Positions 21,525 to 39,515 of a stretch of 64,000 bases of DNA are shown here, piece after piece. The translations under genes and the position numbers were made by a program. Each line of letters opens with the position of its first letter. The first letter of the stretch is position 1. Source of the stretch: Acidimicrobiales bacterium (GTDB taxonomy: Bacteria > Actinomycetota > Acidimicrobiia > Acidimicrobiales > RAAP-2); assembly GCA_035551835.1 (NCBI GenBank), contig DASZMN010000072.1:8573-72572 (forward strand), given 5' to 3'. The notes below the pieces were generated by a model. That model saw only the letters and a list, made by a program, of their open reading frames with translations, had not been told where the DNA came from and did not search any database.

Positions 21525-21537
21525 GCGGCCCCACGCG

Positions 21538-24500
21538 TCACGCTGACTCCAAGACGACGAGCGGCGCACCGGCGGCCACCTGCGTGCCCGGCGTCACGAA
21601 GACCTCGACGACCGCGCCGTTGCAGGGCGAGACCACCGCGGTCTCCGTCTTCATCGCCTCAATGATCACCATGGCCTGGCCGGCGACCACCTGGTCCCCC
21701 GGCTGCACGCTGACCTTCCACACGTTTGACGTCATCGGGGCAGTGACAAGCGTGCCGTTGGCCGGGACCGCGACGCTCGGCAAATCCGGCGGGTCCAGCG
21801 CAGGCTCGTTACGGGGCTCGAATTCGCCGGCGGCCGCCCAGGCGGCGCGCTCGGCTGCGAACGCGGCCGCCTGACGCTCCTTGAAGACCGCGATGCTCGG
21901 TGCCTCCTGGCGCAGCATGTCCTCGTACTCGTGCAACCGGAACGTGCCGGGCTCGGTGCGCACCGGAAACCGCCCCCCGGCAAAGTCGGCGCGCGCGTCG
22001 AGCAGCTCGTCCGCCGTCACCGGGTACCAGTGGATGCGGTCGAAGAACCGCAACAGCCAGGGGACGCCGGGTTCGAACGGGTGATGCTGACGATGGCTGT
22101 TCCAGATCTGCAGTGTCCGCCCGACGAGCTGGTAGCCACCCGGGCTCTCCATGCCATAGATGCATAGGTAGGCCCCGCCGATCCCGACTGAGCTGTCCGC
22201 CGTCCAGGTCCGAGCAGGGTTGTACTTCGTCGTGACCAGGCGGTGGCGTGGGTCGATGGGTGTCGCCAACGGCGCGCCCAGGTACACGTCGCCAAGACCG
22301 AGTACGAGGTAGGTGGCGTCGAACACGGTGCGGCGGACGTCCTCTACGTCGTCGAGCCCGTTGATGCGCCGGATGAACTCGATGTTCCACGGGCACCACG
22401 GCGCGTCCTCCCGGACGCCCGCCGCGTAGCGGGCTGTGGCCTCGTGCGTCACCGGGTCGTCCCAGGACAGCGGGAGGTGGATGGCTCGGCTCGCCACCTC
22501 CAGTTCCTCGGAGCTCGGCAAAGTCTCCTCGAGCGCGCCCACCGCGTCGAGCATGTGCCGGAGCGACGTGGCGCGCGGGTCGAAGTGCACCTGCAAGGTG
22601 CGCACGCCCGGCGTCAGATCGACGATGCCCTCGAGACCGGCCGCGACGATCTGATCCGCCAGCACGTGGACCCGGGCCCGCATAGATAGGTCGAGTTCCA
22701 TCGCGCCGTATTCGACCAGCAGGTTGTCGTCCCCATTGGCCCGGTAGGTGACCGCGGGTGTTGCCCCGGCTGGCCGCCGGTCCAGGACGCCCGACAGGTC
22801 GGCGCCCTTGCCGTTGGCGGTGCACGTGAAGTTGGGCACGAAGCGGACGCGGTCGTCGGGCCGCAGCTGCCCGAGCTTCCAGCGTTCCGAGCTCAAGACC
22901 GTCGCCGGGCAGACGAATCCGCCGAGGCTCGGCCCGTCGGGTCCGAGCAGGATGGGGAGGTCGCCCGTGTAGTTCACCGCACCCACCGAGTACGGCGTGT
23001 CGTGGATGTTCGAGGGGTGGAGGCCGGCGTCGCCGCCGTCGTCCCGGGCCCAGCCCGGGCGCGGCCCGACGAGGCGCACGCCCGTCCGGGCCGAATTGAA
23101 ATGCACCTCCCAGGCCGTTGCGTAGAGCGCGTCCAGGTCCGCCGCTAGGAAGAATTCGGGGGCGGCATGGGGTCCTGGTACGACGCCGAGCTCCCAGTCC
23201 TGCGTGAAGTGCGGCCGCTCTGGCCTGATCCCGGGCGCCCGCACCCCCACGGGTTCTCCAGTCGCATGCAGCACGTCGCCGGCCCTCAGCGTGCGGCCAC
23301 CCAGGCCGCCGATGCCGCCCAGCGTGAAGGTCGCCGCGCTCCCGAGGTACTCGGGCAATTCGAGCGCGCCGGCCACGAGCACGTAGGCCCGGATGCCCGG
23401 AGGCCCGATCGACCCGACGTCGAGCGTGGAGCCAGCGGGCACCGTGACCGGCTCCCACATGGGCACGGCGACGCTGTCCACCTGCACCGCGGCAGGGGCG
23501 CCCGTCACGCAGACCACCGTGTCGACGGCGCAGTGCAGCGCCGGCCCGTCCAACGTCGCCTCCAAGCCGGCCGCACCCTCGGCGTTGCCCAGAGCGAGGT
23601 TGCCCCACCGGAACGACCAATCGTCCATTGGCCCCGAGGGCGGGACGCCGACGTCCCAGTAACCCTGCCGCCCGGGCCAGGCCTGCACTGTCGTCTGGGT
23701 GCCGGGCCGGACGACGTCGATCCGGTGCGAGTCGTACACCACGTCGAGCAGTGTCGCCGTGGTGTGGCGAGCCGACCGGAACTCCGCGTCCTGCAGAGCC
23801 TGCTCCACGAAGGCCAGAGAGGTCTCGATGCCGCCGATCGCGCTCTTGGCGAGCGCCGCCCCGAGCGCGTCGATGGCGCCGTCGCGATCCGGAGCGGTGG
23901 CGACGACCTTGGCCAACAAGGGGTCGTAGGCGGTTGAGATCTCCGTCCCCGCTTCGACCCAGCTGTCCACGCGCACCCCCGTCGGCCAATGGACGGACGT
24001 GATGAGTCCGGGGCTGGGCCGCCAGTCCCGTTCGGGGTCCTCGGCGTAGACCCGAGTCTCGATGGCCGCGCCAGCGGGCCTGGCCAGACGCGCCTCGTGC
24101 AGGGCACCGGGGTCGCCCGCGGCGACCCGCAGCATGATCTCGACCAGGTCGAGCCCGTACACCTGCTCGGTGACGGGGTGCTCCACCTGCAACCGAGTAT
24201 TCACCTCGAGGAACATCGCCTCGGACCTCTCGACGTCATAGAGGAATTCGACGGTGCCGGCGGACCGGTACCAGACCGAGCGGCAGAGGTCGGCGCTGGT
24301 CCGCGCCAGCATCTCGCGCACCGCGTCGGGAAGGTTGGGTGCGGGGGCCTCCTCGACCACCTTCTGGTTCCGACGCTGGAGTGTGCAGTCGCGGTCGCCC
24401 AACACGACGATGTCGCCGCCGCCGTCCCCCATCACCTGCACCTCGACGTGGCGCGCCCGCCGCACTCGACGCTCGAGGAAGACGCCGTCGTCGCCGAAGT

Positions 24501-25077
24501 TCGACCCCGCCAGGCGCGCCACCCGAGCGAAGACCTCGCGCAGCTCGTCCGGCCCGTCGCACGGCGAGATACCGATACCGCCACCGCCGCCCGTCGCCTT
24601 GAGCATGACCGGGTAGCCGATGCGCTCGGCCTCCTCACACGCGTGGTCGACGCTGGAGAGCAGCCCCGACCCGGGCACCAGCGGCACACCAGCCGCCGCC
24701 GCGGCGGCCCGCGCCTCGTGCTTGACGCCGAAGAGCTCGATCTGCGCCGGGGTGGGGCCGACGAAGACGAGTCCCGCCGCCTCGACGGCCCGGGCGAAGG
24801 CCGCGTGCTCGGATAAGAAGCCGTAGCCGGGGTGCACGCCCCACGCTCCCGTGGCAAGGGCGGCCTCAATGACAGCGTCCCCTCGCAGATAGCTCTCCCG
24901 GGCCGGAGCCGTTCCCAGCCGCACGGCCCGGTCGGCGTTGCGCACGTGCAGGGAGTCACGATCCGCGTCGGAAAAGACCGCGATGGTCTCGAGACCCAGG
25001 CGCTTCGCCGTCGCCATGATCCGCGCCGCGATCTCGCCCCGGTTGGCCACCAACAACGGTCCGACCTCGAGGTTCAT
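21538..25077 (-). CDS. urea carboxylase family enzyme (biotin carboxylase + KipA/KipI-like carboxyltransferase + biotinyl domain); possibly a guanidine carboxylase
   Basis: 1179 aa. N-terminus LVANRGEIA ATP-grasp biotin carboxylase, central allophanate-hydrolase-subunit-like domains, C-terminal biotinyl-lysine motif IEAMKTE. Its ATG overlaps the upstream stop (ATGA). Confidence 0.92.
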   Translation of the reverse strand: MNLEVGPLLVANRGEIAARIMATAKRLGLETIAVFSDADRDSLHVRNADRAVRLGTAPARESYLRGDAVIEAALATGAWGVHPGYGFLSEHAAFARAVEAAGLVFVGPTPAQIELFGVKHEARAAAAAAGVPLVPGSGLLSSVDHACEEAERIGYPVMLKATGGGGGIGISPCDGPDELREVFARVARLAGSNFGDDGVFLERRVRRARHVEVQVMGDGGGDIVVLGDRDCTLQRRNQKVVEEAPAPNLPDAVREMLARTSADLCRSVWYRSAGTVEFLYDVERSEAMFLEVNTRLQVEHPVTEQVYGLDLVEIMLRVAAGDPGALHEARLARPAGAAIETRVYAEDPERDWRPSPGLITSVHWPTGVRVDSWVEAGTEISTAYDPLLAKVVATAPDRDGAIDALGAALAKSAIGGIETSLAFVEQALQDAEFRSARHTTATLLDVVYDSHRIDVVRPGTQTTVQAWPGRQGYWDVGVPPSGPMDDWSFRWGNLALGNAEGAAGLEATLDGPALHCAVDTVVCVTGAPAAVQVDSVAVPMWEPVTVPAGSTLDVGSIGPPGIRAYVLVAGALELPEYLGSAATFTLGGIGGLGGRTLRAGDVLHATGEPVGVRAPGIRPERPHFTQDWELGVVPGPHAAPEFFLAADLDALYATAWEVHFNSARTGVRLVGPRPGWARDDGGDAGLHPSNIHDTPYSVGAVNYTGDLPILLGPDGPSLGGFVCPATVLSSERWKLGQLRPDDRVRFVPNFTCTANGKGADLSGVLDRRPAGATPAVTYRANGDDNLLVEYGAMELDLSMRARVHVLADQIVAAGLEGIVDLTPGVRTLQVHFDPRATSLRHMLDAVGALEETLPSSEELEVASRAIHLPLSWDDPVTHEATARYAAGVREDAPWCPWNIEFIRRINGLDDVEDVRRTVFDATYLVLGLGDVYLGAPLATPIDPRHRLVTTKYNPARTWTADSSVGIGGAYLCIYGMESPGGYQLVGRTLQIWNSHRQHHPFEPGVPWLLRFFDRIHWYPVTADELLDARADFAGGRFPVRTEPGTFRLHEYEDMLRQEAPSIAVFKERQAAAFAAERAAWAAAGEFEPRNEPALDPPDLPSVAVPANGTLVTAPMTSNVWKVSVQPGDQVVAGQAMVIIEAMKTETAVVSPCNGAVVEVFVTPGTQVAAGAPLVVLESA

Positions 25078-25682
25078 GGTGCCTGCACCACCACGCGCAC
25101 AGGGGTCGGGTTGAAGCCGTTACACGGGTTGTTCACCTGTGGGCAGTTGGAGATCAGCGTCAACACGGCGACGTGGGACTGCAGGCGGAGCGTGCGGCCG
25201 GGTGCGGAGATCCCGTCGACGATGCCGAGCGTGCCGTCCTCCTCGACCGGCACGTTCATGTACCAGTTGATGTTGCTGACGAGGTCACGCTTACCAAGGC
25301 CCCAGCGGGCGCCCTCGACGAGGAAATTCTCGACGCACGCGTGCTGCGCCTTCGTGTGGTACCCGTAGCGAAGCGTGTTCGCCTCCTTCGAGCAGGCACC
25401 CCCGAGCGTGTCGTGGCGTCCCACCTCGTCGGCGGTGACGGTGAGCAGCGGCCGGCCTTCGTTCGAGCGCAGCTCGCTGCCGGTCGTCAAGAAGATGGAG
25501 CCCTGGCGCGCCACCGTATCGGGGGCGCTGTAGCGCTCGGCGGTGTCCGAGGCGACGTAGAACAGGCAGTCGACCGCCTGGTTGCCCTCGAGGTCGACGA
25601 TCTCGAGGGTGCCCCCAGCGGGCACGATCCCGGACCACGGCGTCCGCGGCGCCACCACGTCGTCACTCACGGTGCGCATCAT
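25074..25682 (-). CDS. urea carboxylase-associated protein 2 (DUF1989; carboxyguanidine deiminase subunit-like)
   Basis: MMRTVSDDVVAPRTPWSGIVPAGGTLEIVDLEGNQAVD... is typical of DUF1989. ATGA overlap with the upstream paralog at 25679-25682. Confidence 0.85.
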   Translation of the reverse strand: MMRTVSDDVVAPRTPWSGIVPAGGTLEIVDLEGNQAVDCLFYVASDTAERYSAPDTVARQGSIFLTTGSELRSNEGRPLLTVTADEVGRHDTLGGACSKEANTLRYGYHTKAQHACVENFLVEGARWGLGKRDLVSNINWYMNVPVEEDGTLGIVDGISAPGRTLRLQSHVAVLTLISNCPQVNNPCNGFNPTPVRVVVQAP

Positions 25683-26530
25683 CTGGTCGCCCGGGCATCG
25701 CGATCGTCCGCGGTGTTGAAGTAGGCGCGCTCGCGCTCGGGACTCGAGGTCCACGTCGGGTCGGTCGGGTTGGTCGGCTCCCCGGACCACCCGGCGATGC
25801 CGAGCGTCGTGGCATGCCACCGATCGGCGGGGTCGATGGGGTGGGCGGTGTTGGCCAGGAGCACGATAAGGGGCAACTCGGCCTTCAGGTCGACAACGGC
25901 GGGTGCACCGGATCCTCCTTGCCACAGCAGCCGGCCGCTCGACGGCTCGACCCGGACGCCCTTGAAGAACGACAGGCTGGGCGGCACGTCGCGGGGGGAA
26001 AGCCCGTGCTTGGCGGCGCCGAGGAGGAAGAGCTCGCGCCCGGCGGGCGAGGGACCCTCGGGACTGCCGCTCCCATAGCGCTCCTCATTGTGCGCCCGCG
26101 AGGAGGTCCCACAGATCGAGTCGTGACGTCCCGAGGTGTCGCTCACGACCGTTGCCAGGACTCGTCCCTGGTCCGAGAGCAGTTGCTGGCCAACAGCGGT
26201 GTAGACCTGCCACTGCACCTTGACGGTGTCCGCCACGTTGAGACGCTCCCAGGGTTGGTCGCTCCGGAACAGGAGCAGGTGTGCGCAGGCATCCGCTTCG
26301 GGGTCACTCAGGCGGATCGTCGTCCCTGCGGCCACGGCCTTGTGGGCGTACCCGCCCGGTGCGACCGTCTCAACCCAGATGAGACGCGCCGCGTCCACGC
26401 CGTCCGGCACGGCGGTGGCCCGGCGGGCCGGGATGGTCGGCATGTGGGTCGCAGCGACTTCGGCCTGGGCGCGAGCATGGTCGCGTGCTCCCGACGTGGT
26501 GGCCGTCTGACCGCTCGTCGGGCTCGACAT
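25679..26530 (-). CDS. urea carboxylase-associated protein 1 (DUF1989; carboxyguanidine deiminase subunit-like)
   Basis: First gene of the carboxylase operon and a paralog of the next gene. LIWVETVAPGGYAHKAVAAGTTIRLSDPEADACAHLLLF pattern. Confidence 0.85.
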   Translation of the reverse strand: MSSPTSGQTATTSGARDHARAQAEVAATHMPTIPARRATAVPDGVDAARLIWVETVAPGGYAHKAVAAGTTIRLSDPEADACAHLLLFRSDQPWERLNVADTVKVQWQVYTAVGQQLLSDQGRVLATVVSDTSGRHDSICGTSSRAHNEERYGSGSPEGPSPAGRELFLLGAAKHGLSPRDVPPSLSFFKGVRVEPSSGRLLWQGGSGAPAVVDLKAELPLIVLLANTAHPIDPADRWHATTLGIAGWSGEPTNPTDPTWTSSPERERAYFNTADDRDARATR

Positions 26531-26631: not shown

Positions 26632-27303
26632 ATGGCCATATCCAACGAGGCGATCCGACCGGTCGGCCGTCCGCGCGCGACGCCCGGCTACTCGTCCGAG
26701 GACGTTGCCGAAGAGATCCTGATGGCGGCCGCGGAGCTCTTCGCGGAGAACGGGTTCACCACCACGTCCACGCGCGCCATCGCCGACGCCGTGGGGCTCC
26801 GTCAGGCCTCGCTGTTCCATTACTTCGCGCGCAAGGAAGACATCCTCATCGAATTGCTGGACCGCACCGTGCGTCCGACGCTCGACGTCGTGCACCGCCT
26901 CAAGTTGGAAAAACATGCGCCTGAGCTGGCCTTATGGCACCTCATTCGGGTCGACACGGCCAACCTGTGCGAGCCACAGAACCTGGGCGCCCTCCAGTTG
27001 CTCCCAGAGGCGCGCGGCGACCAGTTCGAATTTTTCTGGCGCCGCCGCAATCAGCTCTTCCGCGTCTACGCGCGACTCATCGCGCGTGGCTATGACGCCG
27101 GCACCTTTCGCGAGGCGGATCCGCGCATGTCGGCCGAAGTCGTGTTCGGGTTGGTCGAAAGCGTCATCACGGCCAGCCACTCCTTCAGGCAAAGATCCAC
27201 CACACCCGTGGTCATTGCGGACGCAGCATTGCGCATCTGCGGTGTGCCGCCCGGCCGCGCACGCGCGGTCGCGCGTGCAGCTCGCCTTCTCGAAGCGCGC
27301 TGA
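26632..27303 (+). CDS. TetR family transcriptional regulator
   Basis: N-terminal HTH TSTRAIADAVGLRQASLFHYF and a helical C-terminal ligand domain. Confidence 0.9.
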   Translation: MAISNEAIRPVGRPRATPGYSSEDVAEEILMAAAELFAENGFTTTSTRAIADAVGLRQASLFHYFARKEDILIELLDRTVRPTLDVVHRLKLEKHAPELALWHLIRVDTANLCEPQNLGALQLLPEARGDQFEFFWRRRNQLFRVYARLIARGYDAGTFREADPRMSAEVVFGLVESVITASHSFRQRSTTPVVIADAALRICGVPPGRARAVARAARLLEAR

Positions 27304-27421: not shown

Positions 27422-28066
27422 ATGACGGACGCAGCGCCCATCTTCGTCGGCCGCCCCGTACTGCTCTCCATCGACATCCAGCGCGGGTACGCCCTGCCAC
27501 CCGAGGAGTCGGGCATCGCAATCATGGATGGCCACGCCGGCCTGATCGCCAACGCGGAGCGCGTCGTCGCCGCCGCCAGGTTGGCGGCGATCCCCGTCGT
27601 CTTCTTCCAGGAGGCACACCGGCCCGACCTGGTCGACTTCGGGCGCGAGCTCGACGGCACCGAAGGGGTGCACTGCCTCGAAGGCGACGACGGGACGGAG
27701 CTGTGGCCGACGCTCGTACCGGGGCCGGGCGAGTACGGCATCGCGAAGCGGCGCTACTCCTGCTTCTTCGGCACCGACCTCGAGATCCTCCTCAAGGGTC
27801 TCGGCGCGTCGACCCTCGTACTGATCGGCGGCCTGACGGATGTGTGCATCCACTACACGTTCGCCGACGCCCACCAGCACGACTACCGGGTGCGCGTCGT
27901 CTCCGACTGCGTCATCGGCTCAACCGAGGCCCGGCACGAGGCTTCTCTCAGCGCCATGGAGTACCTCCAGCACGGTGCGCGTCGAACAACTTCCGAGGTG
28001 GTCGAGGCATTTGAGACCCACGGCAACACCAACGAACCGGCCAACGTCCACAAAGGAGCGGCATGA
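27422..28066 (+). CDS. isochorismatase-like cysteine hydrolase (biuret/guanylurea/N-carbamoylsarcosine amidase family)
   Basis: LLSIDIQRGY (catalytic Asp region) and GGLTDVCIHYT (nucleophile Cys). SD GGTGAGGAGG. ATGA overlap with the SBP gene. Confidence 0.85.
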   Translation: MTDAAPIFVGRPVLLSIDIQRGYALPPEESGIAIMDGHAGLIANAERVVAAARLAAIPVVFFQEAHRPDLVDFGRELDGTEGVHCLEGDDGTELWPTLVPGPGEYGIAKRRYSCFFGTDLEILLKGLGASTLVLIGGLTDVCIHYTFADAHQHDYRVRVVSDCVIGSTEARHEASLSAMEYLQHGARRTTSEVVEAFETHGNTNEPANVHKGAA

Positions 28067-29679
28067 TGCCAGGTCTCACGTCGTCGGCGCGCACCGCCCG
28101 ACGCACCCTCGCCACCGCAGCGGTCCTTGCGCTTGCGGCGGCGCCAGCATGGGTGGCCTCGTCGCCTCCAGCCGGCGCGGCCTCGTACCCCACGAGTCAC
28201 ACGCTCAACCTGAGCTTCCTCCAAGACCCCGGCCAGCCGCCCGACCCCGACGTGTACTACGCGGGCGAGGGGCTGCTCCTGACGCGGAACATGTATGAGG
28301 GACTTCTGACCTATAAGGCAGACACCGCTCAGCGAGTGCTCGAGCCGGAGCTGGCCACCAGTTGGTCGGTGTCGAAAAATGGTCTCGTCTACAGCTTCCA
28401 GCTGCGCCACGGCGTGCTGTTCCATGACGGGACAGCCTTCACCTCGGCGGCCATCGCTCCTGACTTTGCCCGGCGTGCGGCCGTCAACGGGGGACCCGCC
28501 TACATGGTGTCCGATGTTGCCTCCGTGGCGACCCCGAATCCCTACCAGGCGGTCATCACCTTGAAGACGCCGAACTCGGCGTTCCTCGACTACTTGGCAT
28601 CCCCATACGGCCCGGCGATGATGAGCCCGACCGCGCTGGCGGCAAATGCCGGGTCGGACAACGACCAGACATACCTCGAAACGCACGACGTCGGGACCGG
28701 CCCCTACACCCTGACCGATGCGAAGGTCGGCGTGATGTACCAGATGAAGGCATTCCCGCAGTACTGGGGGCCCAAGCCCTACTACACGACCATCAACCTT
28801 CCGGTCATCGACGACCTCGCCACCGAGGAGATCGAGTTCAACGACGGTCAGATCGCCGCCATCCTCCATGACATGACCACCTCGGTGATCGCCCAGTACA
28901 AGGCCAAGACCAACGTGTCGTCGTACTCGCTCCCGAGCCTCCAGTCCGACACCGCATACGTGAACGAGAACAAGGGCCTTATGAACTCGGCCGCCAACCG
29001 GCTGGCCGTGCTGGGGGCGATCAACGTGGCCTACTTGGTGGCCGGCATCTTTCCTGGCCGCGGCACGGTGGCCAAGCAGGCCGGTCCGACCGGGCTCATC
29101 CCCGAGCCCTACGGCAAACAGAACATCGCCTACGACCCAGCGAAGTTGAAGGACCTCGTCAAGCGACTACCGGCGTCTGAGCGTTCGTTCACTGTGGGCT
29201 ACGACACCGGAGCGCCCGACGACCAGCTCCTCGCCGAGGACATCGGCGCCGAGCTGCAGGCCGACGGCCTGACCACCAAGGTCGTCGGGTACCAGACCTC
29301 CGAGATATTCGGCTGGGTGGGGAACGTCGCCGCCTCGCAGGGTCCGGGGAGCCCCAACATGCTCATCGACTACTTCTGGCCCGACACGTACAACACCTAT
29401 ACCTGGACGCACATCAGTTTCGATCCCTCGGGGGGCTTGCAGTACGTCAATTGCGACAGCGTGCCTGACGAGACCAACCTCAACACTCAAGCGCTCCAGA
29501 CGGGATCGCTCTCCACGTACAACAAGGTGATCGAGAACTCGGTGAAGAGCGGCTGCTGGCTCAACATCGTCGACAAAGACGACGCGATGGTCGCCCAGCC
29601 GTGGCTGAAGGGCATCCCCCAGGCGCACGTCGTGACCGACCCCGAGATGCTGCACCTCGCCAAGCTCCACCCAGGATGA
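28063..29679 (+). CDS. ABC transporter substrate-binding protein, family 5 (peptide/nickel/opine type), Tat/Sec signal
   Basis: N-terminus ARTARRTLATAAVLALAAAPAWVA. About 540 aa with SBP_bac_5-like pattern (YYAGEGLLLTRNMYEGLL, FHDGTAFT). Confidence 0.85.
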   Translation: MMPGLTSSARTARRTLATAAVLALAAAPAWVASSPPAGAASYPTSHTLNLSFLQDPGQPPDPDVYYAGEGLLLTRNMYEGLLTYKADTAQRVLEPELATSWSVSKNGLVYSFQLRHGVLFHDGTAFTSAAIAPDFARRAAVNGGPAYMVSDVASVATPNPYQAVITLKTPNSAFLDYLASPYGPAMMSPTALAANAGSDNDQTYLETHDVGTGPYTLTDAKVGVMYQMKAFPQYWGPKPYYTTINLPVIDDLATEEIEFNDGQIAAILHDMTTSVIAQYKAKTNVSSYSLPSLQSDTAYVNENKGLMNSAANRLAVLGAINVAYLVAGIFPGRGTVAKQAGPTGLIPEPYGKQNIAYDPAKLKDLVKRLPASERSFTVGYDTGAPDDQLLAEDIGAELQADGLTTKVVGYQTSEIFGWVGNVAASQGPGSPNMLIDYFWPDTYNTYTWTHISFDPSGGLQYVNCDSVPDETNLNTQALQTGSLSTYNKVIENSVKSGCWLNIVDKDDAMVAQPWLKGIPQAHVVTDPEMLHLAKLHPG

Positions 29680-29749
29680 AAAACCCCCACGAACACACGA
29701 GACAGGAGACCCGAACCACACGCCACACGAGCGCGACAGACAGTTTCAA

Positions 29750-29878
29750 CTGCAGCACCTAGGGTTCCGCGCCCGCCGGGGCGGTCTGGACCGAGAGATG
29801 AACAGGTTGCAGCCGCAGCCTGACGCGGAGGGATAAAAGCCCGGGAGGTTTCGGCCAACCGGGCTCTCCCTTTTTTGG
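29750..29878 (+). promoter_or_regulatory. ykkC: guanidine-I riboswitch (ykkC-yxkD class, subtype 1-like) including expression platform
   Basis: CCUAGGGUUCCGCGCCCGCCGGGGCGGUCUGGACCGAGAG...CUGACGCGGAGGGAUAAAAGCCCGGGAGG reproduces the invariant ykkC cores (CUAGGGUUCCG / GGnCCGAGAG / ACGnGGnGGGAUAAAAGCCCGGGAG). Terminator and U6 follow. Confidence 0.9.
29838..29876 (+). terminator. intrinsic terminator of the riboswitch expression platform
   Basis: AGCCCGG/CCGGGCU or alternatively GGGAG/CUCCC pairing, with an inner CGG-CCAA-CCG hairpin, followed by UUUUUU. The 5' arm is shared with the 3' strand of the aptamer. Confidence 0.75.
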
Positions 29879-29894
29879 TACGGGAGAGACACCT

Positions 29895-31298
29895 ATGCAG
29901 ACGATTTTCGAGATCGACGAGCACCACGCCGAGCTGGCGAGCAGCCTGGCAGCGCAGGGCGTGGAGTATGTGTTCGCGTCGTTCGTCGACATTGCCGGGC
30001 GGGCCAAGTCCAAGTGCGTGCCGATCGGGCACCTGCCCGACCTCCTCGCCGGGCACGAGCGGTACACGCCTCGAGGCTTGGGCAACCTCGGGCAAATGAC
30101 ACCGACCGAGGACGAGTGTGTCACCGTGCCCGACGCAAGCACGCTGTGCATCCTGCCCTTTGACCGGCGTTTCGCCCACATGGCCGCTGACCTCCACTAC
30201 GGCGGCACGGAGCCGTTCGCCCACTGCACTCGTTCGATCCTGAAGAAACAGCTCGACCGTGCCAGGGCGTCGGGCTACGAGTTCCAGCTGGGCATCGAGC
30301 CGGAGTTCTATGTCGTCAAGCCCTTCGCCGGGGACCGGCCGGCTCCCCCAGACGGCTACCTCGTCCCGTCGAAGCCTTCCGGGCGGCTGCGCCCGACCGC
30401 CGGCTACGACGTAGAAGCCACTTTGGACGTGATGGATTTCCTCGACCCGATGGTGCGAGCCATGCACGATTGCGGTTTCGGTGCATTCAGCTTCGACCAC
30501 GAGGGTGGGGACGGGCAGGTCGAGTTCGACTTCGAGTTTGCGCCGGCGCTCGTCACGGCCGATCGGGTGACCCTGCTGCGACTGATGGCCAAGCAGATCG
30601 CCAAGCAGATCGGGCTCATGGTGACCTTCATGCCCAAGCCCTACACGGAAGCATGGGGCTCGGGCGCCCACTTCAACATGAGCCTCACTGACCTCGAGGA
30701 AGGGCAGAACCTCTTCCGGGACCCGGAGGACACCCGCGGGCGCGGCTGGAGCAAGACCGCCTACGGCTTCGTTGCCGGCATCATGCGCCACGCGCCGGCG
30801 CTGGCCGCCATCTGCACGCCGACCGTGAACTCGTACAAGCGGCTCCAACCTCGTCTCTCCGACGGCACGGTGTCATGGGCCCCGACCTGGGCCGCCTACG
30901 GCGACAACAACCGGTCCTGCCTCCTGCGACTGCCCAGGAACCGTCCGGCCATCGAGAACCGCGGCGTGGACTCGGCCGCCAACCCTTATCTGGCAGCCGC
31001 CTTCCTCGTGGCGGCCGGGCTTGAGGGAGTCGCCCAGGGTCTGGACCCGGGGAATCCGGTCGAGGACCTGACCTACGACTGGTCTCGAACAGGGCCTTCG
31101 GGCGGAGACGTCCAGGCGACGAAGCTGCCGCGCACGTTGCTCGAGGCGATTGAGGCGTTCGACGCGGACCCCCTCACCCACGAAGTCTTCCCCAAGGAGT
31201 TCGTGACGGCCTACGTCGATATGAAGGTCGCGGAGTGGGAGTCGTACCACACGCGCATCTCCGAGTGGGAGCGCGAAAACTACCTGACCATGTTCTGA
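29895..31298 (+). CDS. glutamine synthetase-family ligase (gamma-glutamyl-amine synthetase-like, GlnA/PuuA-like)
   Basis: FVDIAGRAKSK beta-grasp, GIEPEFYVV, TFMPKP, GSGAHFNMSL and NSYKRL motifs of the GS catalytic domain. SD GGGAGAG. Confidence 0.85.
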   Translation: MQTIFEIDEHHAELASSLAAQGVEYVFASFVDIAGRAKSKCVPIGHLPDLLAGHERYTPRGLGNLGQMTPTEDECVTVPDASTLCILPFDRRFAHMAADLHYGGTEPFAHCTRSILKKQLDRARASGYEFQLGIEPEFYVVKPFAGDRPAPPDGYLVPSKPSGRLRPTAGYDVEATLDVMDFLDPMVRAMHDCGFGAFSFDHEGGDGQVEFDFEFAPALVTADRVTLLRLMAKQIAKQIGLMVTFMPKPYTEAWGSGAHFNMSLTDLEEGQNLFRDPEDTRGRGWSKTAYGFVAGIMRHAPALAAICTPTVNSYKRLQPRLSDGTVSWAPTWAAYGDNNRSCLLRLPRNRPAIENRGVDSAANPYLAAAFLVAAGLEGVAQGLDPGNPVEDLTYDWSRTGPSGGDVQATKLPRTLLEAIEAFDADPLTHEVFPKEFVTAYVDMKVAEWESYHTRISEWERENYLTMF

Positions 31299-31301
31299 CC
31301 G

Positions 31302-32096
31302 ATGACGACAAACGGGCACGACGGACCGGTGCGTTGGGAGGACCTCACGTGGCCGGAGATCGAAGCGCTGGTCCGGCGCCGCCCGGACGAGGTCGCCCTC
31401 TTGCCGGTGGGAGCCACCGAGCAGCACGGCCCTCACCTTCCGTCGGGCACCGACACCATCGTGGCCCGGGGGCTGTGCGACGCCGCTTCGTCGCGCACCG
31501 GCGCCCCCGTGCTCCCGGCGCTCGCACTCGGATGTAGCTACGGACACGGGACGCTGCTCCCGAGCACGATCTCGCTGACGCCCGAGCGACTGGCGGACGT
31601 CGTCGTCGACATGGTGTCCTGGCTCGCAAGCAGTGGCATCCGGCGCGTGCTCGCGGTCAATGGCCACTTCGGCAACCAGGCCTCTTTGTCGGTCGCCGGG
31701 GACCACCTGCGCCATGAGCGACCCGATCTGCGCTTCGGGGTCATCCACTGGTGGACACTCACGCCGGCCATCAGCGCGGAGACGCTGGCTGACGGCGGGG
31801 ACGTGCACGCCAACCGCGCCGAGACGGCGCTGATGCTCGCCCTGGCGCCGCAGCACGTCCGCCTCGGCCAGCTCCACCAGGCCGACGACGAAGACCGCAC
31901 TGCGGGACTCGTCTTCCGCTACACCGCGGCCGTCCTGTCGCGCAACGGGGTGACCGGGCGGCCGTCGGAGGCGACGCCCGAGCTCGGGCACAAGCTCCTC
32001 GACGAGGTGGTCGACGAGTTGTGCGCCGCCATCACCCGCGGCCGGACCGAGGAGCCACCGCTGCGCGGTGCCCCCGCGAGCGCGGCGATCGCGTGA
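31302..32096 (+). CDS. creatininase-fold amidohydrolase (creatinine amidohydrolase / MftE / ArfB family)
   Basis: LLPVGATEQHGPHLPSGTD and VNGHFGN motifs. Starts 3 nt after the GS-like stop. Confidence 0.85.
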   Translation: MTTNGHDGPVRWEDLTWPEIEALVRRRPDEVALLPVGATEQHGPHLPSGTDTIVARGLCDAASSRTGAPVLPALALGCSYGHGTLLPSTISLTPERLADVVVDMVSWLASSGIRRVLAVNGHFGNQASLSVAGDHLRHERPDLRFGVIHWWTLTPAISAETLADGGDVHANRAETALMLALAPQHVRLGQLHQADDEDRTAGLVFRYTAAVLSRNGVTGRPSEATPELGHKLLDEVVDELCAAITRGRTEEPPLRGAPASAAIA

Positions 32097-32788
32097 CGTC
32101 GCCCATGCTGGTCGGCATCTTGTGCGGACGGTCACCGGCTGATCGGTACTCGACCCACCGCGGCTACGTCTCTTCGGTGGCGGGCGTGGGTGCCGTGCCG
32201 GTCGTGTTGCCCGCCGGCCCGGACACCGATCCCCTCGCCCTGACCGCAGTGGTCGACCGCTGCGACGCACTCATCGCCACGGGAGGTGGCGATGTCGACC
32301 CCGACCTCTACGCCGGCACGGCGGCGCGGTCCCACGAGTCGTTGATGGACGTGGATCCCAGCCGCGACGTCGCCGAGATCGCGGCGGTCCAGCACGCGCT
32401 GGGTCTGGGCAAGCGGGTCCTCGGCGTGTGCCGCGGCGCGCAACTGCTCGCCGTCATCGGGGGCGGGACACTCATTTCCGACCTGGTGGAGAAGGGCATC
32501 GACGGCCACTGGCAGGAGGAGCGCCAGTACGAGGCGGTGCACGGGGTCCGCGCCGAGCCGGGCTCCGTGGCGGCGGGGCTCCTCGCCAGGGTCGCACGGG
32601 TCAACTCCATCCACCACCAAGCGATCGCGGACCCGGGCCAAGTACTGCGGGCGACGGCCTGGAGCGACGACGGCGTGATCGAGGCCGTCGAGTCTCCGGG
32701 GCTCCTCGGCGTGCAGTGGCATCCCGAACGTCTCTCGGCCGTCGACCCGCGTCACCTGGCGCCGTTCGCGTGGCTGGTGGGCCGGTGA
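32093..32788 (+). CDS. class I glutamine amidotransferase-like gamma-glutamyl hydrolase (PuuD / peptidase C26-like)
   Basis: GVCRGAQLL nucleophile elbow, NSIHHQAI, GVQWHPE. GTGA overlap with the creatininase-like stop. Confidence 0.85.
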   Translation: MTSPMLVGILCGRSPADRYSTHRGYVSSVAGVGAVPVVLPAGPDTDPLALTAVVDRCDALIATGGGDVDPDLYAGTAARSHESLMDVDPSRDVAEIAAVQHALGLGKRVLGVCRGAQLLAVIGGGTLISDLVEKGIDGHWQEERQYEAVHGVRAEPGSVAAGLLARVARVNSIHHQAIADPGQVLRATAWSDDGVIEAVESPGLLGVQWHPERLSAVDPRHLAPFAWLVGR

Positions 32789-34806
32789 CCCTCTCGCACG
32801 CCGCAGCCATCGGATCCAAGGCGCCTGGACCGCACGAGCAAACCGAGCGCGGCACGACGCGTGAGCCGGTCGCCGCCGTGTCGGATCTGCACGTCAATTT
32901 CGTCCGCGGGGGCAACGACGTCCACGCCCTGCGCGGGGTGACGCTCGACGTCGGCCCCGGCGAGATCGTCGGGATCGTCGGCGAGTCCGGGTCCGGTAAG
33001 TCCGTGCTCGCCCTCACCATGCTCGGCCTATTGCCGGCGCGTCCGAGCCCGACCGTCACCGGCTCCGTGCGCGTCTGCGGCACCGACATGGTGACGGCAA
33101 CGGCGGAGGAGGCGCGCCTGGTGCGCCGCCAGCACCTCGGCGCAGTGTTCCAGGACCCGATGACGTCGCTCAACCCGACCATGCGCGTCGGCCGCCAGAT
33201 CCAGGAGGCGGCCGGCTCGGCCGAGGAAGCGCTGCGGCTGCTCGATGCCGTCGGCGTGCCTGAGGCCAAGCGCCGCCTGCGGGCCTACCCCCACGAGCTC
33301 TCCGGTGGCCTCCGCCAGCGCGTCATGATCGCCATGGCGGTGGCGGGGTCACCCTCTCTCGTCATCGCGGATGAACCCACCACCGCGCTCGACGTGACCG
33401 TCCAGGCGCAGATCCTCGAACTCATCGCCTCCCTGCGCGACGAGGTCGGCACGAGCTTCATCCTGGTCACCCACGATCTCGGCGTCGCAGCGCAGATCTC
33501 GGACCGCATCGCCGTGCTCTACGGCTCGCGTCTGGCGGAGGTGGGGCAGGCGGCCGGAGTGCTCTCCGCACCCGTCCACCCCTACACGTCGGGCCTGCTG
33601 CGGTCTCGCCTCGTGGTCGGCTGCGACCGCAGCCGCCCGATCGTCACGCTCCGCGGCGAACCACCCGATCCGCGGGCGCACCCGCCGGGCTGCCCGTTCG
33701 GCCCGCGTTGCGACCTGCACACCGATATCTGCGACGCCGCGCTCCCCGAGCTCGAGGTCGTCATGACCGCCGACGCGGTCCCGCGCCAGGTGGCCTGCGT
33801 CCGCTGGCAGGAGGCGCTTGGGGGCGCGATGGGGGTGGATCCGGCGGACCCCTGGCCCGAGATCGACCTCGGCGTCCAGGGCAGCGCGCCGCCTGGCGTG
33901 CTCGTGCACGACGTGTCGAAGTCCTTTCCCATCGGCAAGGGGTTCCGCCGCCAGCACCTGAAGGCGTTGCGCGGTGTCTCACTCGAGGTGAACAAGGGCG
34001 AGGCCGTGGCCCTGGTCGGCGAGAGCGGCTGCGGGAAGTCGACGCTGCTTCGCTCGATTGCCGGCCTGCAGCCAATCGACTCGGGCTCCATTGAGTTCGG
34101 GCGTGGCGCGCGGCCCCAGATGGTGTTCCAGGACGCCGGCGCTTCGCTTACACCCTGGCTGACGATCGGCGAGCTCGTCGGCGAGCGGCTGCGCTCGGAG
34201 GACCTGAGCCGATCGGAGCGCGCCGAGCGAGTACGCGCCGCCTTGACCGAGGTGGGCCTGCCGGCCGAGATGGCCACGGCCAAGCCCTCGCAGCTCTCGG
34301 GCGGCCAGCGCCAGCGCGCTGCGCTGGCCCGCGCCACCGTGGTCCCGCCCGACGTGCTGCTCTGCGACGAGCCGACCAGCGCCCTCGATGTCTCCCTCGC
34401 AGCGACGGTGCTCAACCTCATCGGGCAGTTGCGGCGCGACCTCGGCGTCGCGGTGCTCTTCGTGACCCACGACCTCGCGGCGGCGCGGGTGGTGGCCGAC
34501 CGCATCGCCGTGATGTACCTGGGGCGCATCGTCGAGTGCGGGCCCTCGGACGAGATCTGCACGTACCCGGCGCACCCGTACACCGAGTCACTCCTGAACG
34601 CCGTGCCCGACCTCGCCCGAACCACCGTCCGTCTCGGGGGCGAGCCGGCGAGCCCGCTCGACCCCCCGTCGGGATGTGAGTTCCACCCGCGCTGCCCCAA
34701 GGCCGAGCCTGCGTGCGCGTCCGTCGACGCACCGCTGACGTCGTGGGGGACATCGAGCCGCGAGGTGGCGTGCCCGGTCTTCCTGCGCACGGTGGGTGGC
34801 CGCTGA
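32785..34806 (+). CDS. fused double ABC ATPase of a Dpp/Opp/Nik-type importer (DppD-DppF fusion)
   Basis: Two full cassettes: GESGSGKS / LSGGLRQR / [12 protein letters not shown] and GESGCGKST / LSGGQRQR / [16 protein letters not shown] overlap with the upstream gene. Confidence 0.9.
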
Positions 34807-35690
34807 TGGCGGTCGCCGAGGCCTACGTTCCCGGTCGGGCGGGCCGCCGCGGCCTGAAGTCGATCGGCGGCGCGTCCAAGGTGTTCACGGGTGCCACCAA
34901 GGTGGACAAGGCGGGCATCATCTTGCTCGGGTTGCTGGTCGTCCTGGCGGTGTTCGCACCTCTGATCGCGCCCTACAACCCGATCGTCCCCTCCGGTGTC
35001 CCCTTCACCTCCCCCCTGCACGGGGGCCACCTGATGGGCACGGACGAGGTCGGCTACGACATCTTCAGTCGGGTCCTCTTCGGCCTGCGCACCAGCATGC
35101 TCGGCGTCCTCATCGTCGTGACGTCGGGGGTCGTCATCGGCGGCCTGATCGGGCTCGTGGCCGGCGTGGCCGGCGGGTGGGTGGACACGGTGCTGATGCG
35201 CTTCACCGACCTGTTCCTCGCGCTGCCCGGCCCGCTGCTCGCCATCGCGATCGCCGCCTCGCTCGGCCCGAGTTACGCCCATGTGCTCGTGGCCGTGGCG
35301 ATCGTCTGGTGGCCCTTCTACGCGAGGATCATGCGCGGGGAGGTGCGCGCCTGGGCCGCCCGTCCCCATTTGGAGGCGGCGGCCCTGGCCGGCGCCGGGC
35401 CCGTCCGCCGCGGGCTCCGCCACTTGCTGCCCGGCGCGGTGCCCGCGATCGTCGTCACCGCGAGCCTCGACGTGGGCAACCTGGTCGTGACGCTGGCGGC
35501 GTTGTCCTTCCTCGGGCTGGGCGCGCCCGCGCCGTCCCCGGAGCTCGGAGCCATGGCCGCGCGCGGCCTGCAGTTCCTGCTCCAGCAGTGGTGGATCCCG
35601 GTGATGCCCGGGATCGCCGTTGCCCTCCTCGCACTCGGCGCCAACCTCACGGGTGACGCCGTGGCCGACGCAACCGGGCAAGGCGTATGA
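34806..35690 (+). CDS. ABC importer permease (DppC/NikC-like)
   Basis: ATG overlaps the ATPase stop (TGATG). N-terminus LLGLLVVLAVFAPLIAPYNP is typical of OppC/DppC. 6 TM segments. Confidence 0.85.
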   Translation: MAVAEAYVPGRAGRRGLKSIGGASKVFTGATKVDKAGIILLGLLVVLAVFAPLIAPYNPIVPSGVPFTSPLHGGHLMGTDEVGYDIFSRVLFGLRTSMLGVLIVVTSGVVIGGLIGLVAGVAGGWVDTVLMRFTDLFLALPGPLLAIAIAASLGPSYAHVLVAVAIVWWPFYARIMRGEVRAWAARPHLEAAALAGAGPVRRGLRHLLPGAVPAIVVTASLDVGNLVVTLAALSFLGLGAPAPSPELGAMAARGLQFLLQQWWIPVMPGIAVALLALGANLTGDAVADATGQGV

Positions 35691-36694
35691 CCGGCCTGCC
35701 GAGGTTCGTGCTCAAGCGCATCGGCGCCCTGCTGATCATCATCGTCATCCTCACGGCGATCATCTTCTTACTGCAGAAGCTGAGCGGCACCAACCCAGTG
35801 CACGCCTACCTCGGCGCCAACGCGTCCAAAGCGGCCATCGCCAAGGAGTCGGCCGTCCTCGGGTACAACAAGCCCGTACTCAACCAGTATTTCCACTACC
35901 TTGGGAACCTCTTCCACGGCAACCTGGAGAACTCGCTCCGTACGCGCCGCCCGGTCTCGACCGACCTCGCCGCCTACCTGCCGGCCACGATTGAGTTGAC
36001 GATCGCCGCCCTCGGCATCGCCCTCGTGCTCGGCACCGCGCTCGGCCTGGCGTCCGCGGGTCGTTGGCGCGGGGCCAGCGTCATGCGGGTGGCGATGATC
36101 GCCGGTGCCTCGGTCCCCTCCTTCCTCCTCGCCCTCCTCGGCGTGCTCATACTCAACGGTGACTTGCATCTGCTGCCGGCGAGCGGTGACACCGGCGTGG
36201 CCAACCCGCCGACGGGCCCGACCGGGATGATCATCCCCGATGCCCTGCTGCACCTGCAGTTCAACACCGCGTGGGACGGCTTCGAACACCTGATCCTGCC
36301 CGCGCTCTGCGTGGCCATCGGCCCGGCGGTTTCCATCGGACGCGTGTTGCGTGGCTCGCTGCACGCATCCATGCGGTCGGACTTCGTCCGCACGGCCCGT
36401 GCCAAAGGCATCACCGAGAGGCTCGTCCTGTTCCGTCACGCGTTGCGCAACTCTCTGTCCGCCGCGCTCTCCATGACCGGACTCCAGGTGGGCCTCATGT
36501 TCGCCGGCGTTGTGGTCGTCGAGACGGTCTTCGCCTGGCCAGGCATAGGGCTCTACACCGAGCAGAGCATCCCGACCGCGGACTTCCCCGCCATCGCCGG
36601 CGTCACGCTCGTGCTCGGCGTCCTCTACGTCGTCATCAACGCGCTGGTGGACGTCCTCCAGGCAGTGGTCGATCCGCGGGTCGCGCTCGAATGA
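35687..36694 (+). CDS. ABC importer permease (DppB/NikB-like)
   Basis: ATGA overlap. N-terminus FVLKRIGALLIIIVILTAIIFLL is typical of DppB/OppB. Confidence 0.85.
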   Translation: MTGLPRFVLKRIGALLIIIVILTAIIFLLQKLSGTNPVHAYLGANASKAAIAKESAVLGYNKPVLNQYFHYLGNLFHGNLENSLRTRRPVSTDLAAYLPATIELTIAALGIALVLGTALGLASAGRWRGASVMRVAMIAGASVPSFLLALLGVLILNGDLHLLPASGDTGVANPPTGPTGMIIPDALLHLQFNTAWDGFEHLILPALCVAIGPAVSIGRVLRGSLHASMRSDFVRTARAKGITERLVLFRHALRNSLSAALSMTGLQVGLMFAGVVVVETVFAWPGIGLYTEQSIPTADFPAIAGVTLVLGVLYVVINALVDVLQAVVDPRVALE

Positions 36695-36745: not shown

Positions 36746-37810
36746 GTGACGGAAAGGCCCCCAGGGCCGATCAGCCTGAACCGCTACGAACTCGAACTCG
36801 CATGGCAGGGCATTCCCACATTTATGAAGCTCCCGGTCTGCCTGACACCCGAAGACCTCAGGGCGGGCAAGGTCGACGTGGCGGTCGGCGGCGCGCCATG
36901 GGACGGCACCGCCGTGACGCGGGCCGGCACCCATATGGGCCCCCAGGCCATCCGGACCTGCGACCACCTGCCGTCTCCTCCCTACGCCCGCCCCCACCTG
37001 CACGTACGGGTCGACCCGTTCGAGCACCTGACCGTGTGCGACTACGGCGACGCCGAGATCATCATCGGGAGCACTGACCGCACCTTCGAGAACATCCGCA
37101 CCTTCGTGGCCGAGATCCTCGGGGGCGGCGCCATGCCCGTCATCCTGGGCGGCGATCACGGCATCACGTGGCCGGCCGCCACCGCAGTGGCGGACGTCTA
37201 TGGGTACGGGAAGATCGGCATTGTCCACTTTGACGCCCACGCCGACACCGCCCCCGACATGCAGGGCGTCCTGGCGGGCCACGGCACGCCCATGCGCCGC
37301 CTGATCGAGAGCGGCGCGGTGCTAGGCCGCAACTTCGTCCAGGTCGGGTTGCGCGGCTACTGGCCGACACCCGACATCGTGGCCTGGATGGAGGAGCAGG
37401 AGATGCACTCGCACTTCATGGCCGAGGTCCAGCGGCACGGCTTCGACACCGTGCTGGAGCGGGCCATCAACGAGGCCCTCTCGGGCAGCGCGGATCACCT
37501 CTACATCTCGGTCGACGTCGACGCGGTCGACCCGGCCCACGCGCCCGGGACCGGCTCGCCCGAGCCGGGTGGCCTCACCAGCGCCGAGGTGCTCCGCGCC
37601 GTGCGGCGGATGTGCGCCGAGGTCGGCATGGTGGCGATGGACGTGGTCGAGGTCAGCCCTCCCTACGACTCGGGCAACAACATCACCGCGCTCTTCGCGC
37701 ACCGCTGCGTCCTCGAGGCTCTGACGGGGACGGCCATGCGTCGGCTCGGCCTGACCACGCCCGACTACCTCGACGAGACCGCTGCGGGCGGGGCCGAGGG
37801 CAGCGAATGA
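36746..37810 (+). CDS. arginase-fold ureohydrolase (agmatinase/guanidine- or guanidino-compound hydrolase family)
   Basis: [44 protein letters not shown] start with AAAGGAG upstream. Confidence 0.85.
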   Translation: MTERPPGPISLNRYELELAWQGIPTFMKLPVCLTPEDLRAGKVDVAVGGAPWDGTAVTRAGTHMGPQAIRTCDHLPSPPYARPHLHVRVDPFEHLTVCDYGDAEIIIGSTDRTFENIRTFVAEILGGGAMPVILGGDHGITWPAATAVADVYGYGKIGIVHFDAHADTAPDMQGVLAGHGTPMRRLIESGAVLGRNFVQVGLRGYWPTPDIVAWMEEQEMHSHFMAEVQRHGFDTVLERAINEALSGSADHLYISVDVDAVDPAHAPGTGSPEPGGLTSAEVLRAVRRMCAEVGMVAMDVVEVSPPYDSGNNITALFAHRCVLEALTGTAMRRLGLTTPDYLDETAAGGAEGSE

Positions 37811-38886: not shown

Positions 38887-39515
38887 GCGGCGAGCCTGAG
38901 CGGCCGGCGGAGTTGGCCGACATCCAGGGCTCGTGGCGCCGCGACGGGCGCCGGCTGCACGACGGGCCCTGGGACGAGATCAGCGACGTCCTGTGGCTCC
39001 AGGTCGGCGTGCACTTTTGCGACCTGCGCACGGCGTACGCCGGCACCGTGCCGTCCCACGGCCTCGATCTCGCCCAGGCCTTCAGCGGGACTATCGACGT
39101 CGCCCACGGGGACATCACCTTCCACCACGATCTCGACTCCTTGGACCGCGATCCCGCGCACCCCGACGTGAGCACCGTCCACCGCGTGGCCGAGGCCATG
39201 TACGAACGGGGGCCGGGGTTCGAGGAGCGCTGGGTCCTGGCGTCGCTGCCCGACGACGACGGCGCCGTCGCCGAGCTGCCCGCGGCGGACGGGGGGGCGC
39301 TCGCTCGCATCGTGCGGGTCGGCGCGCTGGCGCTGGCGGTCTGGGGCGGGCGCACTCCCGGCGGCGCACGGTACACCGCACCCCACGGGTGGGCACCTGA
39401 GCCCGCGACGCCGGGCGAACGCGGCGTCGCCGACGCCGACGAGGCGGTCCACGCCCTCGCCTTCGGCGGCCCGCTCCCGGGGAGCTGGCAGTCGGTCACC
39501 ACGATGCCGTCGTGA
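38883..39515 (+). CDS. hypothetical protein (210 aa), translationally coupled on both sides
   Basis: GTGA overlap at both ends (38883-38886 and 39512-39515) and high GC3. No family recognised. Confidence 0.55.
   Translation: MSGEPERPAELADIQGSWRRDGRRLHDGPWDEISDVLWLQVGVHFCDLRTAYAGTVPSHGLDLAQAFSGTIDVAHGDITFHHDLDSLDRDPAHPDVSTVHRVAEAMYERGPGFEERWVLASLPDDDGAVAELPAADGGALARIVRVGALALAVWGGRTPGGARYTAPHGWAPEPATPGERGVADADEAVHALAFGGPLPGSWQSVTTMPS

Follow-up and report, generated by a model that had tools for sequence, protein, structure and literature searches.

A guanidine-I riboswitch with a terminator-like expression platform precedes genes for a glutamine-synthetase-like ligase and a creatininase-like hydrolase in an Acidimicrobiales bacterium

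A 64,000-nucleotide (nt) stretch of DNA from an Acidimicrobiales bacterium (contig DASZMN010000072.1, positions 8,573 to 72,572), referred to below as the window, carries a guanidine-I (ykkC subtype 1) riboswitch aptamer at positions 29748-29849 on the plus strand (+), on which all leader features described here lie. The aptamer runs into an intrinsic-terminator-like expression platform (29827-29876), which is followed by the Shine-Dalgarno sequence GGGAGAG (29882-29888) and, 6 nt further on, by the ATG start codon (29895-29897) of an operon whose first two genes encode a glutamine-synthetase-like (GS-like) ligase and a creatininase-like hydrolase.

Scanning the window with Infernal against all 4227 Rfam families, we obtained a single match at the gathering threshold, RF00442 (Guanidine-I) at 29748-29849 (+). 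Its score is 72.1 bits, the gathering score being 63 (E = 7.4e-11), and the match covers model positions 1-107 of 107. A rescan of 29650-29950 at a permissive setting revealed no competing family, the runners-up reaching 13-15 bits. The full-length match and the lack of a competitor show that the element truly belongs to the ykkC scaffold, and they bear out the guanidine-I (ykkC) identity proposed in a preliminary description of this DNA. The guanidine-I class has thousands of members, and the element is one more of them, ordinary as an RNA.

As a yardstick we collected 120 metagenomic stretches by the pattern CNCNNNGGGANAAAAGCCCGGNAG, which leaves A65, G67, G68, position 69 and G85 free, and aligned the 97 good aptamers of this set to a covariance model. 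Pocket positions are numbered here as in the Dickeya dadantii structure, transferred via PMC5340920 with GUCCGAGAG as G31-G39 and CACGG...GGGAG as C64-G68...G83-G87. Across the 97 aptamers, 45 columns reach a conservation of at least 90%, and the window aptamer agrees with 42 of them. The three disagreeing columns are an alignment column in P2, the position of A65 (29825) and a U32 to A exchange at 29790, the last being a minority variant (6/97) that is common to the window's whole clade. For closer comparison we assembled 80 loci encoding relatives of the GS-like protein from species-representative genomes (cited by L numbers where needed) and searched them with a covariance model derived from the recovered elements. 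A ykkC-type aptamer is present in 29 of these loci, with a remnant in L002. Canonical aptamers occur in 18 Acidimicrobiia loci and in the window (19 sequences), and in 16 of the 18 the aptamer lies directly before the GS-like gene, which is followed by the creatininase-like gene.

From 5' to 3', the aptamer is composed of the 5' core CCUAGGGUUCCG (29758-29769), the P1b hairpin CGCCC-GCCG-GGGCG (29770-29783; stem 29770-74/29779-83, loop GCCG), the core block UCUGGACCGAGAG (29785-29797), the P2 hairpin CAGGUUGC-AGCC-GCAGCCUG (29803-29822; stem 29803-10/29815-22, loop AGCC) and the 3' block ACGCGGAGGGAUAAAAGCCCGGGAGG (29823-29848). These are the blocks that had been quoted before, with the trivial omission of the AUG (29798-29800) between GAGAG and the P2 hairpin. 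P1 is formed by 29756-59/29797-800, its second pair, C29758·A29798, being mismatched, and P1a by 29762-63/29791-92 and 29767-69/29786-89. P3 comprises C29824-G29844 and the pairing of GGG (29830-32) with CCC (29840-42), and it encloses the A-rich loop AUAAAAG (29833-39). Both the Infernal alignment and a direct pair check show that all helix pairs are canonical except for this one C·A in P1. Among 30 homologous elements from other genomes, P1 and P1b display compensatory changes, such as CG to UA in 6 sequences and AU to GC in 9, and one P1b pair occurs as UA, AU, GC and CG.

According to PMC6031431, the ykkC subtypes are sorted by A46 of Sulfobacillus acidophilus, equivalent to A38 of D. dadantii, which is a pyrimidine in subtypes 2a and 2b, the classes for guanosine tetraphosphate (ppGpp) and phosphoribosyl pyrophosphate (PRPP). 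The discriminating base belongs to a G-A dinucleotide bulge (D. dadantii G37/A38, S. acidophilus G45/A46) found at 29795-29796 in the window; in the 97 metagenomic aptamers this bulge has G in 100% and A in 98%. Position 29796 is A, the guanidine type. In the D. dadantii structure, guanidinium stacks on G67 and is contacted by the G68 phosphate and the Hoogsteen edge of G85 (PMC5340920). The window retains the guanidinium contacts G37 (29795), G67 (29827), G68 (29828) and G85 (29845) as well as A86 (29846), and also the long-range pairs C64-G84 (29824/29844) and C66-G87 (29826/29847). The 5' side of the pocket, C64-A65-C66-G67-G68 (29824-29828), reads C-G-C-G-G, and the 3' side, the S-turn G83-G84-G85-A86-G87 (29843-29847), matches the consensus at 5/5 bases. 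Subtype 2, whether for ppGpp, PRPP or nucleoside diphosphates or of the 2d type, was rejected, with A at 29796 and G at 29827 where pyrimidines would be expected. A 5'/3' pairing of the P0 type was not obvious in the alignments by eye, a formal search not having been made; close relatives differ from one another in the 5' tail (29748-29755), and the 3' sequence forms part of the terminator. The bases at the discriminating positions thus support subtype 1 rather than subtype 2, the assignment also made in the preliminary description, and all contacts named for D. dadantii are of the guanidine type.

The expression platform (29827-29876) consists of the paired segments GGAGGGA/UCCCUUU, AGCCCGG/CCGGGCU and GGU/GCC followed by a run of six uridines (U6, 29871-29876), which runs on from the hairpin. 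The hairpin at 29827-29873 has a calculated folding energy of -26.3 kcal/mol, with z = -2.7 relative to shuffled sequences. The terminator, U6, Shine-Dalgarno sequence and ATG reported earlier were all recovered. A simple terminator scanner did not report the hairpin 29827-29873 because its stem contains internal loops that fall outside the scanner's pattern. The two strands that form P3 in the aptamer, GGG (29830-32) and CCC (29840-42), find other partners in the terminator: CCC at 29868-70 for the former and GGG at 29861-63 for the latter. Since both P3 strands are taken by the terminator, P3 of the aptamer and the hairpin are mutually exclusive in the predicted folds. This agrees with the earlier suggestion of an ON switch, which had been based on the 3' strand. 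Calculated energies are -48.7 kcal/mol for the terminator state and -21.5 kcal/mol for the aptamer state, values that hold the 5' domain constant and cover secondary structure only, tertiary and ligand energies being uncounted. As the terminator state is far more stable, the default would be OFF, and capture of the ligand during transcription would be required. Guanidine-I riboswitches are known as transcriptional ON switches of this design (PMC5340920; PMC12186494). A whole-leader minimum-free-energy fold, in which the 5' core pairs with the Shine-Dalgarno region, was set aside because it ignores the tertiary-structured aptamer.

The arrangement recurs in relatives. Of the 18 other canonical homologs, nearly all have a hairpin 3' of the aptamer that re-uses the 3' strand of P3 (AAAAGCCCGGGAGG); in L020, a truncated fold failed to bring it out. 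This hairpin is followed by a run of at least four uridines in 8 of the 18, by a weak U tract in 3 and by none in 7. The 3' arm of the window terminator, CUCUCCC (29864-29870), is moreover the exact complement of the Shine-Dalgarno sequence, and when the aptamer is excluded from folding, the rest of the RNA adopts a structure in which 29864-70 pairs with 29882-88.

The genes downstream of the switch leave little space between them, and stop codons overlap with start codons. The first (29895-31298, +) encodes a glutamine-synthetase-family ligase of 467 amino acids (Pfam Gln-synt_C, E = 8e-94) that is nearest to GmaS/GlnT. It scores 436 bits with TIGR03105, under the cutoff of 469.6 for the type III glutamine synthetase equivalog, and its best solved structures are the glutamate--methylamine ligase 9QUR (1.9e-86) and 7CQL. 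An exact-sequence look-up of this protein returned no record, and the 98%-identical protein P0001 stood in for it. The second gene (31302-32096, +) encodes a creatininase-family amidohydrolase of 264 amino acids (PF02633, E = 1.9e-65), which falls under both the MftE and the creatininase equivalog cutoffs and matches creatinine amidohydrolase structures at about 1e-21. It is followed by a gene for a peptidase C26/class-I amidotransferase-like gamma-glutamyl hydrolase resembling PuuD (32093-32788, +), whose start, set by the gene call in L201, overlaps the preceding stop, and by genes for an ATP-binding cassette (ABC) transporter of the Opp/Dpp/Nik type (32785-36694, +), comprising a fused double ATPase extending to 34806 and permeases at approximately 34800-35690 and at 35687-36694. 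The series ends with an arginase-family ureohydrolase gene (36746-37810, +; Pfam Arginase, E = 1e-79). The nearest solved relative of its product is the Ni-dependent guanidine hydrolase GdmH (Sll1077; 7ESR/7OI1, 1e-51, compared with 5e-48 for guanidinobutyrase). The ureohydrolase is 81-98% identical across related loci, and 90-98% where the GS-like protein is 82-97%; no other gene of the cluster is as well conserved. Nickel-insertion genes of the HypA/HypB type were not noticed in its vicinity.

Beyond the operon lie genes for the alpha subunit of a Rieske-type oxygenase (about 37800-38886) and for a metallo-beta-lactamase-fold protein (39512-40333), which co-occur with the operon in many related loci. 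Methylguanidine demethylation genes have recently been described in riboswitch-controlled operons (PMC12508155), and by analogy the products of these two genes might convert substituted guanidines.

On the opposite strand, 3-10 kb upstream of the switch, lies a complete cluster of the guanidine-carboxylase type (19791-26530, -), with genes for allophanate hydrolase, urea/guanidine carboxylase (TIGR02712, 1682 bits) and two DUF1989 proteins resembling CgdAB. A TetR-family gene (26632-27303, +) is divergent from it. The window scan gave no riboswitch of any Rfam class at the gathering threshold on this divergent carboxylase operon, which suggests that the classical pathway is under protein-based control beside a neighbouring operon controlled by RNA. 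An association with genes of guanidine export or catabolism would rest on the GdmH-like gene within the operon and the adjacent carboxylase/CgdAB/allophanate hydrolase cluster, the proximal GS-like and creatininase-like genes having no documented guanidine role. The neighbourhood looks like a guanidine-related gene island.

Immediately upstream of the aptamer, a gene for a family-5 solute-binding protein (28063-29679, +) ends 69 nt before it, and this gene is itself preceded by one for an isochorismatase-family hydrolase (27422-28066). The hydrolase has weak similarity to the biuret hydrolase BiuH, and the binding protein to the nickel-binding NikA. Judging from such similarity, a Nik-like transporter could supply nickel to the GdmH-like enzyme. 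A sigma-70 promoter scan upstream of the switch found nothing. The dinucleotide TA is missing from 29680-29759, as it is from the L001 and L201-203 spacers, and the longer interval 29380-29759 is free of TANNNT hexamers. A dedicated promoter for the switch was dropped as a candidate on these grounds, with no sigma-70 match and no -10-like hexamer in 380 nt. Promoters of the Acidimicrobiia are, to our knowledge, poorly characterized, and the negative is to be taken with caution. No plus-strand terminator was found after the stop codon of the binding-protein gene. The lack of a -10-like hexamer suggests that transcription arrives from the isochorismatase-like/binding-protein side and that the switch is probably an internal attenuator on a longer transcript, running from the isochorismatase-like gene through the binding protein and the switch to the GS-like gene and onward. 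In L017 and L022, the aptamer lies about 2.4 kb farther from the GS-like gene than elsewhere, ahead of the isochorismatase-like and binding-protein genes, a placement that fits a single guanidine-responsive unit of all these genes.

Two further situations were found among the 80 loci. Eleven loci from Mycobacterium, Dactylosporangium, Plantibacter and uncultured relatives (L048-L051, L053, L054, L056, L058, L067, L071 and L079; e.g., 9019-9115 in L051, Mycobacterium palustre) carry a variant aptamer, which precedes first the creatininase-like and then the GS-like gene. Its P3 reads ACACC[A/U]GGGGA...CCCGG[A/C/U]AGGA and thereby exchanges G67 for C, G68 for A or U, and G85 for A, C or U, and in 8 of the 11 loci A38 is replaced by G (CCGAGGG for CCGAGAG). 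The variant scores 63.1 bits against the RF00442 gathering score of 63 and would therefore be annotated as guanidine-I. None of 122 metagenomic P3 matches is of this type. Its sequence suggests that it may be an unrecognised ykkC subtype with another ligand. Loci in the L059-L080 range have GS-like and C26 genes and neither a creatininase-like gene nor an aptamer; their GS-like genes probably represent a different paralog.

The second situation is loss. In the L002 remnant (9841-9957), the 5' core is missing and the U tract is disrupted. In the region of about 9870-10000, only the 5' core is left in L008 and only the 3' half of the terminator in L007, and in L004 and L005 the element is unrecognisable. 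Wherever relatives lost the aptamer, the U tract has been destroyed as well. No replacement riboswitch was detected in the 14 aptamer-less loci, which gave no Rfam match at the gathering threshold, other guanidine classes included.

We consider it likely that the window element is a functional guanidine-dependent antiterminator, i.e., a guanidine-I riboswitch acting as a transcriptional ON switch, possibly with reduced affinity. This reading builds on the family membership, the identities of the pocket bases, the exclusive folds and the conservation of the arrangement in relatives, from which we infer guanidine binding and antitermination. The guanidine-related genes in and beside the operon also speak for it, as does the purifying selection indicated by the invariance of the aptamer between two related lineages with diverged spacers. 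In the nascent RNA, the P1/P1a/P1b-P2 domain would fold and dock the short P3 hairpin (29824-29844). Guanidinium would be held between this domain and P3, stacked on G29827 and hydrogen-bonded to O6 of G29795, to the G29828 phosphate and to G29845 through its Hoogsteen edge. If guanidine is absent, the much more stable hairpin 29827-29873 would capture both P3 strands and, together with U6, halt transcription ahead of the start codon at 29895. If guanidine is present, P3 would be held, nucleation of the terminator would be blocked and RNA polymerase would enter the operon, reading the genes for the GS-like ligase, the creatininase-like hydrolase, the gamma-glutamyl hydrolase, the ABC transporter and the GdmH-like ureohydrolase.

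Several findings weigh against this reading. Position 29825 is G, whereas 97/97 metagenomic aptamers and 29/29 homologs have A at this site (A65), a base that forms two hydrogen bonds to the ligand-contacting G37 in the D. dadantii structure (PMC5340920). The mismatch at 29798 in P1 adjoins the conserved C6-G39 pair. The Rfam score of 72.1 bits is 11.3 lower than the 83.4 bits of L001, alongside five substitutions. The aptamer has been lost in several close relatives with identical gene order and is therefore dispensable in the clade. Moreover, CUCUCCC, once released in the antiterminated state, could mask the Shine-Dalgarno sequence and so oppose an ON response. The preliminary description had called the riboswitch clear; that word holds for family membership, and full function is not assured, given the G at 29825, the mismatch at 29798, the lack of a -10-like hexamer and the loss in relatives.

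The odd bases can be placed by comparison with the closest relatives. Position 29798 is A in the window and G in the homologs with an intact element, the paired columns 11/75 being CG in 27 sequences and CA in 1, the window; the decayed L002 remnant alone shares the A. The aptamers of L201-203 (GS-like protein 98% identical) and L001 (97%) are identical to each other, differing at 0/102 positions, and their spacers differ at 17/68. The window differs from these loci at 5/102 aptamer positions and at 11-20/68 positions of the upstream spacer (5% versus 16-29%). Its five aptamer changes comprise two in the unpaired 5' tail, one in the P1b loop (29778), one in P1 (29798) and that at 29825. The four closest relatives have the canonical A at the equivalent of 29825, and the G is confined to a single lineage. 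As it is much better conserved than its flank, the window aptamer is under constraint, though looser than in the sister lineages. Both the G at 29825 and the C·A mismatch at 29798 may weaken ligand binding and still leave the riboswitch functional.

The alternative that survives best, although we judge it unlikely, is a weakened or decaying riboswitch: an element of guanidine-I descent with crippled ligand binding that now serves as a constitutive, possibly leaky terminator or is on its way to being lost. A G at 29825 that recurs in 0/126 other aptamers would fit such decay, as would the five lineage-specific changes in the window compared with none in two sister lineages, the lower Rfam score relative to L001, the series of decayed elements in L002, L008, L007 and L004/L005, and the A at 29798 shared with L002. 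The terminator and U6 are intact, however, and a dead aptamer would then silence seven tightly coupled, well conserved genes, whereas every decayed relative is also without a U tract. Chiefly from the persistence of U6 in the window and its absence in the aptamer-less relatives, we think that the window aptamer still works. Furthermore, the aptamer is 3-6 times better conserved than the spacer, and in D. dadantii the point mutations G37A and A38G, at pocket bases nearby, reduced affinity only about 10-fold (PMC5340920). The substitutions at 29778, 29798 and 29825 could also be assembly or consensus errors.

Mainly translational control is quite improbable. It would have CUCUCCC (29864-70) toggle between the 5' strand of P3 and the Shine-Dalgarno sequence (29882-88), with the U run being incidental. 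The exact 7-nt complementarity between the terminator arm and the Shine-Dalgarno sequence, which recurs in L001, L003 and L006, speaks for it, as do homologs that have the hairpin with a weak U run or none (L009-L011, L013, L024, L027, L028 and L030). The polarity is nevertheless wrong for an ON switch, since ligand binding frees CUCUCCC to mask the Shine-Dalgarno sequence, and U6 straight after a hairpin of -26 kcal/mol is classic terminator geometry. The complementarity would also arise automatically from the P3 strand GGAGGG being similar to a Shine-Dalgarno sequence, and it may be a by-product of that. Least credible is a ykkC variant with altered ligand specificity, either subtype-2-like or a new subtype created by 29825: one pocket-adjacent base is indeed unlike that of all other guanidine-I aptamers, and a true pocket variant precedes the orthologous genes in Mycobacterium and others, but A38/A46 is A, G67, G68 and G85 are of the guanidine type, a conserved P0-type 5'/3' extension is lacking, and the change occurs in a single lineage whose four closest relatives have the canonical A.

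If the window element is a guanidine-responsive antiterminator, it ties an uncharacterised, widely conserved pair of GmaS-like and creatininase-like enzymes to guanidine. As an RNA it is routine and would be picked up by any Rfam-based annotation; its value lies in pointing to this unstudied enzyme pair and to the pocket-variant ykkC aptamer of other actinobacteria. Creatinine is a cyclic acylguanidine. A third, ATP-dependent guanidine route is conceivable, although we regard it as doubtful: the GmaS-like ligase would acylate guanidine with the gamma-carboxyl group of glutamate, and the creatininase-like enzyme would hydrolyse the resulting acylguanidine. The PuuD-like hydrolase would assist where present, and the products would be glutamine or glutamate together with urea or ammonia. 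In addition, the window element is a natural mutant at an invariant base that supports the pocket and, with its canonical and decayed sisters, provides a series on what the aptamer requires.

Guanidine degradation is presented in 2025 reviews as proceeding by two routes only, via the carboxylase and via GdmH. In the literature searched, we found no mention of gamma-glutamylguanidine and no link of guanidine riboswitches to glutamine-synthetase-like or creatininase genes, the gene-association table of Nelson et al. 2017 lying outside that search, so that an earlier listing is possible. Compared with the guanidine-I leaders of D. dadantii, S. acidophilus and Bacillus subtilis ykkC, the window element shares the three-hairpin fold, the conserved cores and the A-rich P3 loop. 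It also has their pocket (G37, A38, G67, G68, G85, A86, C64-G84 and C66-G87) and the ON design with a terminator competing for P3. It differs from them in having G for A65 (29825), the C·A in P1 (29798) and A for U32 (29790), and in being probably operon-internal rather than located at a 5' end. Moreover, its first genes encode GmaS-like and creatininase-like proteins and not a carboxylase, a Gdx exporter or an importer of the NitT/TauT type.

The ykkC subtype 2 riboswitches, i.e., 2a (ppGpp), 2b (PRPP), 2c (adenosine and cytidine diphosphates, ADP/CDP) and the orphan 2d, share the scaffold and many conserved nucleotides with the window element. They have pyrimidines at A38/A46 and at G67 and a P0-forming 5'/3' extension, whereas the window has A and G and no such extension. 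Their gene context (amino-acid or purine biosynthesis, NUDIX, EamA) likewise differs from that of the window. The Synechocystis sll1077 (gdmH) operon likewise combines a guanidine-I ON switch with an ABC transporter and an arginase-family enzyme, structurally nearest to the one in the window. Unlike that operon, the window was not seen to have HypA/HypB-like genes, its transporter is of the Opp/Dpp/Nik type, and its arginase-family gene comes last, with the GS-like and creatininase-like genes next to the riboswitch.

The variant aptamer of M. palustre, M. asiaticum, M. sherrisii, M. arosiense, Dactylosporangium fulvum and Plantibacter is built on the same scaffold and stands before the orthologous gene pair, and its loci often adjoin a guanidine-carboxylase cluster (L050, L051). 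The variant has a rebuilt pocket and the window element is not of that type; at the orthologous position, other actinobacteria possess a ykkC variant that may sense a different ligand.

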